Shown here one piece after another: positions 3,810-47,268 of a stretch of DNA of 53,082 nt. Numbering within the stretch: the stretch's first letter is position 1; the number at the start of each line of letters is the position of its first letter. The stretch is from Candidatus Pacearchaeota archaeon (GTDB taxonomy: Archaea > Nanobdellota > Nanobdellia > Pacearchaeales > GW2011-AR1). The stretch is taken from the NCBI GenBank assembly GCA_016866975.1, contig VGKP01000003.1:1-53082 (forward strand), written 5' to 3'. The notes below the pieces were generated by a model that was not told the DNA's origin, ran no database searches, and was given only the letters and a program-made list of their open reading frames with translations. Position numbers and translations under genes: made by a program.

Positions 3810-4322
3810 ATGGGAATGGAAGAAATCGAGCGCGTCAAGAGCATCTTCCAAGAGCTCAATCTCAATCCTGAATACCGGGAACATGCGCCTGCAATCACTA
3901 GTGAAGAAGCTTCCCGTAATAGAGGAGATTTGCTGAAGCAAGGCATTAAATCTCTCCTGTTCACCAACGGCAAAGACTTCATCATCGTGAATCTTCCGGC
4001 AGATCAAAAAGTCGACACCAAAAAAGTCGAGCAAACGCTCAATTGGCAACGCTCAACTATGAGAATGGCAACACCTCAAGAAGTCATCGAAAAAACAGGT
4101 TGCGAGATTGGCGCAGTCCCTCCATTCGGCCACAAAACCCCTCTTCAAATCCTTGTAGACCTAGGAGTCTATGATAACAAAGAAAGCGCATTCAATATCG
4201 GTCTCCGCACGTATTCAGTAAAAATCTCTACGCATAAGATGAAAAATCTCTTTAGACATCTCAATGCGCTGGAAGGTGCATTTGCAAAATCATCACAAAA
4301 ACGATGCGCCACCTCGGATTGA
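3810..4322 (+). CDS. YbaK/ProXp aminoacyl-tRNA editing domain protein; last codons and stop supplied by the inserted hairpin element
   Basis: IKSLLF, GCEIGAVPPFGH and AFNIG motifs. TATA TTTATATA starts 29 nt upstream. Confidence 0.85.
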   Translation: MGMEEIERVKSIFQELNLNPEYREHAPAITSEEASRNRGDLLKQGIKSLLFTNGKDFIIVNLPADQKVDTKKVEQTLNWQRSTMRMATPQEVIEKTGCEIGAVPPFGHKTPLQILVDLGVYDNKESAFNIGLRTYSVKISTHKMKNLFRHLNALEGAFAKSSQKRCATSD

Positions 4323-4493
4323 AAACCGAGGTTTGTTGCAGTCGCTCGTTTTTGGAGATGCTCGGGAACCACCACACCTTGAAAGGTGTGGTTTTCATCG
4401 GTTCCCGACATAAGCACGATACACCACCTCGGATTGAAAACCGAGGTTTGTTGCAGTCGCTCTTGTCATCAAGGATGTAAATCCTTGACATAA
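4292..4493 (+). mobile_element. Hairpin element copy 1 (composite: A + B + partial A + minimal 26-bp hairpin)
   Basis: ATCA-caaaaacgatgcgccacctcgg...ggttcccGACATAA, then a second A arm and ATCAAGGATGTAAATCCTTGACATAA. Confidence 0.9.
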
Positions 4494-25817: not shown

Positions 25818-25888
25818 GCAGCTTTAGTTCATCGGTAGAATGCGACCTTCCCAAGGTCGAGAGACGGGTTCAATTCCCGTAAGCTGCA
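25818..25888 (+). tRNA. tRNA-Gly(CCC)
   Basis: GCAGCTT/AAGCTGC acceptor, CGACC-TT-CCC-AA-GGTCG anticodon arm, ACGGG-TTCAATT-CCCGT T-arm, A73 (archaeal type). Confidence 0.93.
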
Positions 25889-26073
25889 TTGCTTACGGGA
25901 AGAATTCGCTGCAATTTTTATATGATTGCAGCTGCCGCGGACTTTGTCTGCGAGCACCGTAAGCTGCATTGCTTACGGGAAGAATTCGCTGCAATTATTA
26001 TATGATTGCAGCTGCCGCGGACTTTGTCTGCGAGCACCGTAAGCTGCATTGCTTACGGGAAGAATTCGCTGCA
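25877..26073 (+). repeat. 80-bp tandem repeat (about 2.5 copies) beginning with the last 12 nt of tRNA-Gly
   Basis: CCGTAAGCTGCA at 25877, 25957 and 26037. Units 1 and 2 differ at one base. Confidence 0.95.
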
Positions 26074-29863: not shown

Positions 29864-30955
29864 TCAGAGGATCTCTGCGCATCCAAGGACCTTGTTCTTT
29901 ATAGAAAATACAATAATCTGTCCTGAGGCTATTGAAGAGATAGGCTTATCAGATTCAAAGTACATCTTTCCGCCTACTCTAACTACCTTGCCCTCATGAT
30001 ATTCCCCCAGATGTCTTATTCTGGCACAGACTTTGCCATTAAGAGAAGAGCCAGGGCCAATCATATGTACCTTGCCGATATTTATCCTTTTTCTGCACAA
30101 TCTAATGTCTCCCTCAGGCGCGACTTTAATTATATTTTTCTTGACGTCTTTACTTACCACATAAAACCTCTTCTGTGCCAGTCCATAAGGTTTGACTAAT
30201 TTAATTCCTGAACTCTCTCCTGCCTTCTGTCCTTCAGTATAGAAAAATGCTCCATTATGTTCTCCAATTTCAGTCCCATCAGGCATCACAACTCTTCCTT
30301 TCTTCTCTCTTATCTTCGTTCTAAGAAAATTGCGCATATTGTCCTGTCCAACAAAACATATCCCTACTGTGCCATGTTTGTCCCAGTTTGGCAACCCTTC
30401 TTTTCTTGCAATATCTCTTACATCCTTTTTCTTGTAATGCCCAAGAGGAAAAATCGTCCTAGAAAGATGATTTTGCGAAAGGTCCGAAAGGAAATATGAC
30501 TGATCCTTATCCTTATCTGCTCCTGAAAATAGTTCCCACACTTTTCCTCTTCTCCTTACTCGCGCATAATGGCCAGTAGAAATATATTCAGCTTCAAGTT
30601 TCCTGGCAGCAGTGAGCAATAAAGGGAACTTGATGACTTTGTTGCATGCAATATCTGGATTTGGGGTCTTCCCTCTTTTATATCCTTCAAACATGGGTCC
30701 TAGAACTTTATTCTTGTAGTCCTTTTCATAGTCAAGGACATGTAAGGGAATCTCTAATATCATTGCAACTTTCCTGGCCATCTTAAGATCTTCAAGATAC
30801 TTGCATTCTCCAGTAGACTTATTCTTTGTATCAGAATACAACTTAAAAAATACTCCGACAACTTCATAGCCTTTTTTCTTTAATAAAAGCGCCGCTACGC
30901 TTGAATCAACTCCTCCAGACAGTCCAATTACAACTTTCTTTCTCTGGTTTTTCAT
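29864..30955 (-). CDS. mnmA: tRNA 2-thiouridine(34) synthase MnmA (bacterial type)
   Basis: SGGVDSS, PNPDIACN, TGHYAR, KDQSYFL and GICFVG motifs. Confidence 0.92.
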   Translation of the reverse strand: MKNQRKKVVIGLSGGVDSSVAALLLKKKGYEVVGVFFKLYSDTKNKSTGECKYLEDLKMARKVAMILEIPLHVLDYEKDYKNKVLGPMFEGYKRGKTPNPDIACNKVIKFPLLLTAARKLEAEYISTGHYARVRRRGKVWELFSGADKDKDQSYFLSDLSQNHLSRTIFPLGHYKKKDVRDIARKEGLPNWDKHGTVGICFVGQDNMRNFLRTKIREKKGRVVMPDGTEIGEHNGAFFYTEGQKAGESSGIKLVKPYGLAQKRFYVVSKDVKKNIIKVAPEGDIRLCRKRINIGKVHMIGPGSSLNGKVCARIRHLGEYHEGKVVRVGGKMYFESDKPISSIASGQIIVFSIKNKVLGCAEIL

Positions 30956-31293: not shown

Positions 31294-31295
31294 AA

Positions 31296-31574
31296 CGTCC
31301 CCTGGAGGACTCGAACCTCCGACCCTGCGGTTACAACCTTCTCTAATTACTTAGAGGGTAGGACTATACCATCACCATAGCAAAATGCCTCAGGTGGCGA
31401 GTGTCTAGTCTCTGCACCTTCCCTTTCGGGCTTGGCTCAGGATTGCCCTTTACCAATAAAGGGTTTCCCTGAATTTACTCGCTTTTTCATTCCACAGTTT
31501 CCTATGAAAGCTGCTAACTCGGTTTTTTCAACCTGTCTTACAGCCGCATGCTCTACCGGCTGAGCTAAGGGGAC
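31296..31574 (-). tRNA. tRNA-Asn(GTT) interrupted at 35/36 (exon 1 31574-31540, exon 2 31333-31296)
   Basis: Splicing gives a canonical 73-nt cloverleaf: GTCCCCT/AGGGGAC, TGCGG-CT-GTT-AA-CCGCA, GGAGG-TTCGAGT-CCTCC, G73. Confidence 0.9.
31334..31539 (-). ncRNA. Group I intron (IC3-like), 206 nt, no ORF
   Basis: P3 GCGAGU/ACUCGC, P4 UUCAGG/CCUGAG, P7 GACUA/UAGUC, IGS GUUAGCAGC forming P1 (U35.G wobble) and P10, terminal omega-G. Confidence 0.92.
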
Positions 31575-31629
31575 ATAGAAACATCAAAGAAAAACGTTAT
31601 TTAAAGCTTTAGATGAAGCACAAAATAAG

Positions 31630-33725: not shown

Positions 33726-34379
33726 TTATGAGGGTTCAACTTCTATCTTCTTTCCATTAACAGTAAATAATTTAGAATCAACTCCCTCAGTAAGATGCAC
33801 AATTCCTTTTTCAACCTCGTAGCTTTCAATCACTCTTGGGAGAAAGCGATATTTAGGAAATCTAATCCAATGATCCCACTCTGAAAGCCTTGTCTTTCCT
33901 ACATGATGATATCTCTTAAACTGATACATCCAATTCCAAGCCACAATATAAAGAGTCCTTCTATTAACATATTTTTCCTTAATAGTTCCAATTCTACCAA
34001 TATCTCTAGTTAAATCAAAAAAACGATGCGCCACTGCGGCTTAAAAGCCGCAGTTTGATGCAGGCGCTCGTTTTTTGGATGCTCAAGGAACAACTCCAGC
34101 TTAAAAGCTGGAGTTTTAGTCAAGTTCCTTGACATAATAAAATCCAAGTCCCCAGCAAGTAGTTTTATTCCTCTCCCCCCATTTCATTTCATGATCAAGT
34201 TTTCGCCATGATTTATGAATATATTCTTCATCAGACTGCTTTGCAAAAGCAACTTCTAAATCAACTTTCTCGTCTAGTAAATCAATACCAGGGGCAGGAT
34301 TGTTTTTCATATTTAGAACTTTCGCAGCCCAGAACTCATTCAGATGAAAGAAAGTCCCGTTAAAATGCCTGTGATCCAT
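33726..34379 (-). pseudogene. One hypothetical gene (about 178 aa) split by an antisense hairpin-element insertion
   Basis: ORFs 34116-34379 and 33726-34034 share a frame (offset 345 nt). Removing the element joins ...GLGFYY to (D)LTRDIG... Confidence 0.7.
34014..34137 (+). mobile_element. Hairpin element copy 5 (A' + C), intragenic
   Basis: ATCA-aaaaaacgatgcgccactgcggcttaaaagccgcag...caaggaac...gttcctt-GACATAA. Confidence 0.93.
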
Positions 34380-46015: not shown

Positions 46016-46630
46016 ATGAATAAAGAAAGTAAGCTATTTCTTAGGATATTCCGAAAGGCAGAATCAAGGTACGGCAAGACCGATAAGAGACTTGCAGGAG
46101 AAGGTTGGCAGCATGATTGGCAGACACTTATAGCTACAATATATTCTGCCCAGAGCAGGGATGAGATGACAATTCCAGTGATGGAGAACCTTTTCAAGAA
46201 ATATCCTTCATTAGATAGCCTCTCCAAGGCACCTCTCCAGGGCATTATGGATATAACAAGAAGAATCAATTACTATAAGACAAAATCAAAAAATGCAAGA
46301 GCTGCAGCCCAGATGCTTATTGACAAATTTAATGGAAATGTTCCTGAAACGATTGAAGAGCTTGTAGAAATACCGGGTGTAGGGAGGAAGACCGCAAACC
46401 TTGTCTTATCAGAAATACATTCAAAAGACACCATCTGCGTTGATACTCACGTACACCGTCTGAGTAATGTGCTCGGTCTCCTCAAGACAAAGACTCCCCA
46501 TCAAACAGAATTAGCCTTGCAAAAAATAGCGCCCAAAGAGTACTGGTCAAGAATTAACAGGATTTTTGTGCTTTGGGGGAAAGATGTAAGGGGAAGGGAC
46601 AAAAATAAGATTCTGGCAAAAATAAAATGA
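46016..46630 (+). CDS. nth: Endonuclease III-family HhH-GPD DNA glycosylase lacking the Fe-S cysteine cluster
   Basis: SAQSRD, IPGVGRKTANLVL and VDTHVHR motifs. No C-terminal CxxxxxxCxxC. Confidence 0.85.
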   Translation: MNKESKLFLRIFRKAESRYGKTDKRLAGEGWQHDWQTLIATIYSAQSRDEMTIPVMENLFKKYPSLDSLSKAPLQGIMDITRRINYYKTKSKNARAAAQMLIDKFNGNVPETIEELVEIPGVGRKTANLVLSEIHSKDTICVDTHVHRLSNVLGLLKTKTPHQTELALQKIAPKEYWSRINRIFVLWGKDVRGRDKNKILAKIK

Positions 46631-47268
46631 AGAAAATCACAAAAACGATGCGCCACCTCGGCTTAAAAGCCGAGGTTTGTTGCAGGCGCTCGTTTTTTGG
46701 ATGCTCAAGGAACAACTCCAGCTTAAAAGCTGGAGTTTTAGTCAAGTTCCTTGACATAAAAAGAATACATATTTTAGGAATTTACGGCAGTGGAAAATCT
46801 ACTTTTGCTCTTTCTCTGTCTAAAAGATTGAACATTAGGTGCTATGACTTGGATGAGATAAAATACAAGAGAAAATTTGACAAGATTCGCTCATTGAAAG
46901 AAAGATTAAAAATAATCAGAAACATCTCAAGAAAAACCTCTTGGATAACTGAAGGAGCTTGGACATCTTACGCGGCCCCTGTTTACAGAAATGCTGACCT
47001 TGTGGTTTTCCTGAAGATACCCGAACCGAGAATCTATTGGAGGATATTGAAAAGATATATCAGAAGAAGATCAGACTCAACTAAATACGAGAAAGATACC
47101 ATACTTACCACATTGTGCATAATGCGGCAGGTCTTTAGGTATTTTCACAAACCAAAGAGCTTTATGACTTTGCAGAGCCATAAAGAATGCATTGACACAT
47201 ATGCCAAGAAGTATATCCTTTTAAGGAACCAAAAAGAGATAAATGCATTTCTGGATAAGGTAAGATGA
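46627..47268 (+). CDS. Adenylate-kinase-like P-loop protein (FlaR/topology-modulation type) carrying an in-frame hairpin-element insertion near its N-terminus
   Basis: GIYGSGKST, DLDEI and WITEG motifs. About 39-40 codons after MKKI are element-derived. Confidence 0.8.
   Translation: MKKITKTMRHLGLKAEVCCRRSFFGCSRNNSSLKAGVLVKFLDIKRIHILGIYGSGKSTFALSLSKRLNIRCYDLDEIKYKRKFDKIRSLKERLKIIRNISRKTSWITEGAWTSYAAPVYRNADLVVFLKIPEPRIYWRILKRYIRRRSDSTKYEKDTILTTLCIMRQVFRYFHKPKSFMTLQSHKECIDTYAKKYILLRNQKEINAFLDKVR
46636..46759 (+). mobile_element. Hairpin element copy 8 (A + C), intragenic, in frame, no stop
   Basis: Reads TKTMRHLGLKAEVCCRRSFFGCSRNNSSLKAGVLVKFLDI in the host frame. Confidence 0.93.

Follow-up and report, generated by a model that had tools for sequence, protein, structure and literature searches.

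Recent in-frame insertion of a hairpin-forming repeat into an adenylate-kinase-like gene of a Pacearchaeota archaeon

Results

A repeat element within an adenylate-kinase-like gene

The stretch of DNA analysed here (the window; 53,082 nucleotides (nt) of contig VGKP01000003.1, assembly GCA_016866975.1, from a Candidatus Pacearchaeota archaeon) contains an adenylate-kinase-like P-loop gene on the forward strand (46627-47268, +; 213 codons plus the stop), into which a 120-nt element, equal to 40 codons, is inserted at 46638-46757 (+). The element belongs to subfamily A+C of a dispersed repeat family and was delimited from that family and from a gap in the homologues; minus the insert the gene has 173 codons. 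The 213-residue open reading frame (ORF) at 46627-47268 (+) runs MKKI, then TKTMRHLGLKAEVCCRRSFFGCSRNNSSLKAGVLVKFLD, then IKRIHILGIYGSGKST and is stop-free throughout, the element itself being read as (I)TKTMRHLGLKAEVCCRRSFFGCSRNNSSLKAGVLVKFLD(I). The original 5' end of the gene lies at 46627-46637 (+), where ATG AAG AAA AT specifies MKK and two bases of a split Ile codon, as judged from the sequence and from the N-terminus of the homologue P0014. The Walker A motif, or P-loop, GIYGSGKST (residues 51-59; 46777-46803, +) is intact 3' of the insert and falls in invariant or nearly invariant columns of a 29-sequence alignment. Directly upstream lies an endonuclease III-type gene (HhH-GPD; 46016-46630, +), called from its ORF and from a precomputed Pfam HhH-GPD/HHH match on the identical ENA contig, and the kinase ATG overlaps its TGA stop as ATGA (aaaATGAag at 46627-46630). 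Sequence inspection between the element end and the P-loop found no in-frame ATG, GTG or TTG, so the kinase gene is readable only through the element.

The host protein appears to be a kinase, with a Walker A motif and a predicted nucleoside monophosphate (NMP) kinase fold (AAA_18 / FlaR-like P-loop NTPase). Kinase profiles from NCBIfam and Pfam first align at residue 45-47 of the 213-residue protein, PRK08118 with a score of 70.8 bits, under its equivalog cut-off, and AAA_18 with 23.8 bits, under its gathering score; the latter match is precomputed for most homologues. In the AlphaFold2 model, residues 1-39 have a predicted local distance difference test score (pLDDT) below 50, and from about residue 41 the means of 10-residue blocks are 77-96, mostly above 85. 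The modelled fold is of the adenylate-kinase type, with the insert as a low-confidence coil at the N-terminus, and its nearest PDB folds are hCINAP/AK6, adenylate kinases, shikimate kinases and Fap7.

Public calls for the locus conflict, with 213 residues at JGI and ENA against 139 residues at NCBI; the NCBI fragment spans only about 80% of the reconstructed 173-residue kinase. The filled locus is also found, with 100% nucleotide identity, on the ENA contig (assembly ERZ27247963) and on a 1,214-bp JGI metagenome contig (sample 3300020198). The same filled sequence in two further assemblies makes a single-assembly artefact unlikely.

The empty site and the age of the insertion

A search with the reconstructed 173-residue protein returned 39 homologues of 139-184 residues, including the window's own truncated public call. 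All 28 aligned homologues (160-184 residues) have a 40-column gap opposite the insert. The reconstructed empty site is MKKIKRIHILGIYGSGKST, and the homologue P0014 begins MKKIKRIHIVGIYGSGKST (MKKIKRIHIV). Moreover, the kinase orthologues of two congeners (G009 and G001) lack the insert and have the N-termini MKIHICGIYGSGKST and MRIHICGIYGSGKST. Exact look-up of the empty-site kinase, EamA and Nudix alleles in the protein collection found none of them, and so gave no sign of an unfilled allele in this strain. The first-pass annotation had read in these letters an in-frame, stop-free element of about 40 residues before the Walker A strand of a P-loop kinase and had predicted MKKI(I)KRIHILG as the empty site; the ORF and the homologue gap bear out the former, and the start of P0014 the latter.

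The kinase copy matches another one in the genome (C7:1528-1647) with 100% identity, which indicates that the insertion is very recent. Six positions separate it from the most frequent A'+C sequence, found in 12 of the 23 120-nt copies. That the insert is stop-free thus reflects the sequence of its subfamily and not maintenance after insertion. The kinase insertion is real, clean and very young, and it is unique to this gene among the homologues; it is ordinary in kind and bears no sign of selection.

Structure and distribution of the repeat family

Twelve members of the family fall in the window; genome-wide (805,708 bp, 31 contigs) there are about 65 loci, and copies terminate many of the contigs. 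Boundaries were taken as AT|CA(A/C)AAAAACG...GACAT|AA, with 0-2 nt of ambiguity left by the shared AT, which does not affect the result. The kinase copy consists of hairpin module A (46638-46699, +; lower stem, bulge, GC stem, internal loop, upper stem and TTAAAA loop) and hairpin module C (46701-46757, +; identical in architecture to A and ending in GACAT), both delimited by RNA folding and covariation. Folding of 46618-46777 as RNA gave two adjacent bulged hairpins at -61.2 kcal/mol (z = -8.2). Among 18 diverged family members, 21 of the 44 predicted pairs per element were changed on both sides and the unpaired linkers and ends were nearly invariant, whereas the encoded peptide varied freely across those copies. 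Since the pairs are kept while the peptide varies, it is the hairpin structure that is conserved in the family and not the peptide.

The element ends, CA(A/C)AAAAACG and CCTTGACAT, are not mutual inverted repeats. In the flank logo, nearly every copy is bordered by AT to its left and AA to its right, within A-rich surroundings. Thirteen of 16 congeneric genomes contain related copies vs 2 of 24 from other genera; from these sequences, the element seems almost wholly confined to this DPANN (Pacearchaeota-type) genus. It was unmatched in Rfam, whose matches in the window were three tRNAs and one group I intron only, and a Pfam search of both element-encoded peptides gave no match. The family is apparently an undescribed one of archaea.

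Some variants were also noticed. They concern C1:46346-46465 and C1 reverse strand 79105-79227: both hairpin loops are flipped (TTAAAA to TTTTAA) over unchanged stems in some copies, and one intragenic copy has reached 123 nt by two separate small insertions. In the whole genome, at least 11 tRNA genes have long introns of 48-128 nt made of small AAGGAAC/GTTCCTT-type hairpins, which resemble the extra modules of long forms of the element. The tRNA-Asn gene carries a group I intron (Rfam RF00028, 81.5 bits); within the window, these tRNA observations refer to 31295-31575. An 80-nt unit forms 2.5 tandem repeats at 25877-26073, directly after and overlapping the 3' end of tRNA-Gly (25818-25888).

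Genome-wide test for open reading frames

Each complete copy was excised in silico, open frames spanning the junction were sought, and the flanks were scored by a codon model built on 258 long ORFs. The intragenic multiple-of-three set had 15 members, of which one measured 123 nt and the others 120 nt. Host-frame stops, 1-4 per copy, occur in 11 members; the remaining four are open, where random landing at ATAA/TTAT would give about 3.8. This expectation combines the frame distribution of ATAA/TTAT in long ORFs with the open frames of each subfamily. Open insertions are not enriched. Selection for frame preservation is therefore unsupported: the open count is that of random landing, the kinase insert is young and absent from homologues, and neither retention nor exaptation is shown.

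The four open copies lie in the kinase after residue 4 (+), after residues 9 and 10 in the signal peptides of two proteins that are about 1,080 and 1,500 residues long, and in a DDE transposase, 48 residues before the C-terminus; all are assigned by the excision analysis. The signal-peptide copies (contig C8, reverse-strand coordinates 30269-30388, and C19:4467-4586) read MSRNLTKTPAFKLELFLEHPK(N/K)ERLHQTAAFKPQWRIVFL and also provide an ATG at the element edge, and their proteins are predicted to be secreted or on the surface. The DDE-type transposase copy (C8:20767-20886, 120 nt) has an AAGCACG-type left module and lies in an ORF of about 390 codons.

Excision of other copies gave single continuous Pfam matches over the junction for HMUDK_hel, HAD_2, EamA and NUDIX, whose elements hold four host-frame stops in the HMUDK_hel and NUDIX hosts and one TGA each in the HAD_2 and EamA hosts. 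In the nearest relative, G016, the orthologues of EamA and Nudix show no gap when aligned over these junctions. Continuous matches and gap-free alignments after excision indicate that the insertions are precise. By Pfam, the host genes of stop-bearing copies are accessory (Nudix, HAD, EamA, 5-hmdU-kinase-like, MutS-like ATPase and UVR-domain protein), and among the interrupted genes there was no ribosomal, polymerase or aminoacyl-tRNA-synthetase gene. A bias of sense copies towards the AT|A frame was considered and dropped (p = 0.09-0.20, not significant): initially five of five sense copies lay in one frame, which was gone after a non-coding case was removed and the boundaries of AAGCACG-type copies were corrected.

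Other copies in the window

The gene adjoining the kinase, for an EamA transporter (47265-48254, +), is interrupted by a second copy and now appears as the same-frame ORFs 47265-47396 and 47496-48254. This 120-nt A'+C copy (47354-47473, +) is identical to the A'+C consensus, has the same orientation and frame as the kinase copy 716 nt upstream of it, and brings a TGA at 47394-47396. The reconstructed EamA protein has one EamA match over the junction, and its G016 orthologue is 75% identical and uninterrupted.

A further 120-nt A'+C copy (34016-34135, +) lies antisense in a minus-strand 177-codon ORF (33726-34379, -; no Pfam match), in which ORF analysis finds four host-frame stops in the element. 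The copy leaves two shorter ORFs, 34116-34379(-) and 33726-34034(-). The latter half starts at an in-frame GTG within the element (MAHRFFD-…), so that the two halves could be separate polypeptides. The copies at 34016, 46638 and 47354 had been called intragenic and frame-preserving by the first-pass annotation; they are intragenic and 120 nt long, while frame-preserving applies by length only to the first (four stops) and the last (one TGA).

A 118-nt A+B copy at 4294-4411 sits within the TAA stop of a 170-codon ORF (window 3810-4411), which now extends nine codons into the element (…AFAKS-SQKRCATSD). With the target A-TAA, stop codons are natural landing sites of the family, yielding new C-terminal tails.

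Length-class bias

In this genome, 11 of 22 evaluable multiple-of-three copies lie mid-gene vs 0 of 17 118-nt A+B copies (Fisher p = 0.0007), and those 118-nt copies that touch genes are at gene extremities. The length bias that the first-pass annotation noticed thus holds genome-wide, but it is confounded with module and age and is absent in relatives. It coincides with the presence of module C rather than B (p = 0.05 within the C-bearing copies alone). Divergence from consensus is higher in the 118-nt class, with 27 differences in 19 copies vs 14 in 21 A'+C copies (ratio 2.2, p = 0.012), and among 27 copies from related genomes the bias disappears (4 of 22 vs 1 of 5, p = 1.0). Selection for translatability cannot cause the bias, because most multiple-of-three copies contain stops. 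An effect of subfamily and age is plausible, not proven; we infer that a younger burst still awaiting purging is the cause to be preferred, which leaves the bias partly unexplained.

Relatives and element-derived peptides

The search for element-derived peptides that the first-pass annotation had proposed was carried out as a HMMER scan of 1.84 billion representative predicted proteins with the 41-residue segment, and it returned 11 proteins. Among these, the insert lies near the C-terminus in P0008 (5'-nucleotidase-like, from genome G005), near the N-terminus in P0002 and near the C-terminal end in P0006 (149 residues). In addition, a copy in genome G006 (L022) is an open mid-gene insert. The P0008 insert is lineage-specific, since the element is missing from all of over 20 homologues, which come from 20 other genera, and among the in-frame cases examined no insert was common to different species, each being confined to one lineage. 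A word-indexed protein search with the insert region matched P0001 alone, a fragment with a receiver domain and an ORF that begins within an element. Diverged copies from relatives mostly remain 120 nt long (22 of 27).

Candidate sources of mobility

The genome has a Y1_Tnp (IS200/IS605-type) gene at C10:194-541 and two partial copies at contig ends (C6:1-153 and C12:26760-26912), positions that point to a multi-copy insertion sequence (IS). The AT at both junctions of the element is indistinguishable from a 2-bp target duplication. A classical miniature inverted-repeat transposable element was rejected, as the listed copies have no terminal inverted repeats and only this ambiguous AT.

Discussion

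We consider it probable that a small non-autonomous mobile DNA element recently inserted into the kinase gene, that the frame of the gene is open by chance, and that no selection is indicated. The insertion sites of the element would be A-rich and of the form AT|AA. Its landing point in the kinase gene would be the Ile codon ATA at position 4, in sense orientation, and of the three sense frames of the A+C subfamily this one alone has no stop. Landing in the single stop-free sense frame accounts for an ORF that is open by chance. Translation, presumably from the original ATG, would add 40 probably disordered residues to the kinase immediately ahead of strand beta-1, with the Walker A motif and the remaining fold predicted to be unaltered, and the enzyme may tolerate it. 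Transposition was possibly single-stranded and IS200/IS605-like, of the kind seen in PATEs. The insert is best seen as neutral or slightly harmful, and as material from which new protein sequence may arise rather than an adapted segment.

Three points weigh against this reading. Chance alone does not explain the length bias of p = 0.0007. All four open copies lie at sites that are likely to be tolerant, and selection for translatability would give the same pattern. Furthermore, the end hairpins of the resident Y1 transposase are unlike modules A, B and C, and no autonomous partner was found.

Silencing of the kinase is a serious possibility for the functional outcome, possible rather than probable in our judgement. 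According to this explanation, the hairpins block initiation or the T6 tract terminates transcription, and the kinase gene is a fresh pseudogene that has not yet decayed. The pair of hairpins, with its predicted energy of about -61 kcal/mol, begins 11 nt 3' of the ATG. Archaeal RNA polymerase terminates at oligo-T tracts, and a T6 tract (46692-46697) follows the GC stem of hairpin A. The same family plainly breaks many other accessory genes of this genome, and NCBI annotates just the 139-residue remnant. On the other hand, the ATGA overlap with the endonuclease III-type gene suggests that ribosomes already engaged on the mRNA translate the kinase by coupling, and T-runs are frequent in AT-rich genes.

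Protein innovation under selection, in the manner of Rickettsia palindromic elements (RPEs), would mean that only stop-free, frame-preserving copies persist in important genes and that the insert is expressed and tolerated or useful. The open in-frame insert at a permissive N-terminal site of the kinase is what it predicts, as are the three further open in-frame copies in two signal peptides and a DDE transposase, the enrichment of multiple-of-three lengths mid-gene, the retention of 120 nt in most diverged copies of relatives, and the open in-frame copies in relatives' predicted proteins (P0002, P0006, P0008 and L022). However, we think it unlikely. Stops occur in 11 of the 15 intragenic multiple-of-three copies and the open count equals the random expectation; the kinase insert is identical to another copy and absent from all homologues, and that of P0008 is likewise lineage-specific. 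Its peptide matches no Pfam family and is modelled as a low-confidence coil, and substitutions in the family keep base pairs, not residues.

Much less probable than either is neutralization after transcription, in which the element is cut from the mRNA like an intron or bypassed by ribosome hopping and internal stops become irrelevant. At least nine apparently intact genes carry stop-bearing copies with no other lesions, and the tRNA genes of this genome have long introns of similar small hairpins. Sense A' copies read GUU-UGA with an in-frame GUU 60 nt downstream, and antisense copies read GAC-UAA in an element that ends in an in-frame GAU. It is conceivable, at very long odds, that the elements are mobile cassettes for recoding or removal, where ribosomes take off at GUU-UGA in sense copies or at GAC-UAA in antisense ones and land on the matching downstream codon, or where the element is excised from the mRNA. 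Such recoding or removal, if true, would keep the stop-bearing genes functional and explain why the young subfamily is mid-gene in 11 of 22 cases, and either bypass or RNA removal would be a new kind of archaeal gene expression. Against this, the matching take-off and landing codons are a product of the homology between modules A and C, and copies close to consensus would be expected to lack further gene decay anyway. Only accessory genes are affected, which fits disruptive rather than harmless insertions, and an intron or a bypass would not require lengths that are multiples of three. An archaeal bulge-helix-bulge intron in particular was rejected on the predicted fold, which consists of two separate hairpins; no helix is predicted to join the element ends, and no such motif would then be possible, so that removal by the tRNA-splicing endonuclease is unlikely.

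Misplacement of a repeat copy into the kinase gene during assembly is hardly credible: many contigs end in repeat copies, so the family does disturb assembly, but the identical filled locus is carried by the ENA contig and by a separate contig from JGI whose sequence runs through the element, and the flanks rejoin into a perfect homologue-like N-terminus.

The kinase insertion thus represents the first step of a route to protein novelty known from bacteria, a palindromic repeat placed in frame in a conserved enzyme, here in a reduced DPANN archaeon. The genome-wide control adds that open in-frame copies arise at the rate set by the target site and the element sequence, and selection is not needed. 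Moreover, a young burst of repeats that heavily breaks accessory genes in an 806-kb genome bears on genome erosion and annotation in DPANN archaea.

Several known systems resemble the element in part. PATEs and other miniature elements derived from IS200/IS605, as generally understood, share with it the same-strand subterminal hairpins, the lack of terminal inverted repeats, a fixed short target in fixed orientation to it, seamless excision in silico and a Y1 gene in the genome. Against the likeness stand the end hairpins of the resident Y1 copies, which do not match modules A, B or C, and the junction AT, which may be a short duplication. The bypass elements of T4 gene 60 and of Magnusiomyces mitochondria (byps) are similar as short structured inserts in intact-looking genes with a matching codon ahead of a stop and once more downstream; the matching codons here follow from the homology of modules A and C, and the likeness is a lead only.

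BOX, ERIC and Correia-type repeats of bacteria (in part PMC10969869) are, like our family, assembled from shuffled modules (here A, A', B and C with additional hairpins) and strongly structured, and copies of them now and then lie within genes or form ORF fusions. They differ in sequence family and domain of life, and much of one young subfamily is intragenic here.

The RPEs, to which the first-pass annotation had likened the insert, are the closest in form. Both are dispersed palindromic repeats of 100-150 bp that occur in frame in unrelated genes and add a peptide at a permissive site, so that the likeness holds for the formal features of the kinase copy; it does not extend to the predominance of open fusions or to retention across species. 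About half of the members of three of ten RPE families are in-frame ORF fusions, and 11 of 12 homologues in other species were reported as such (PMC10969869). Here open fusions number 4 of 15, not beyond chance, and the inserts are young and lineage-specific; moreover, the host is an archaeon and no conservation of the peptide was seen. In-frame fusions are not unusual among intragenic miniature elements in general (PMC10969869).

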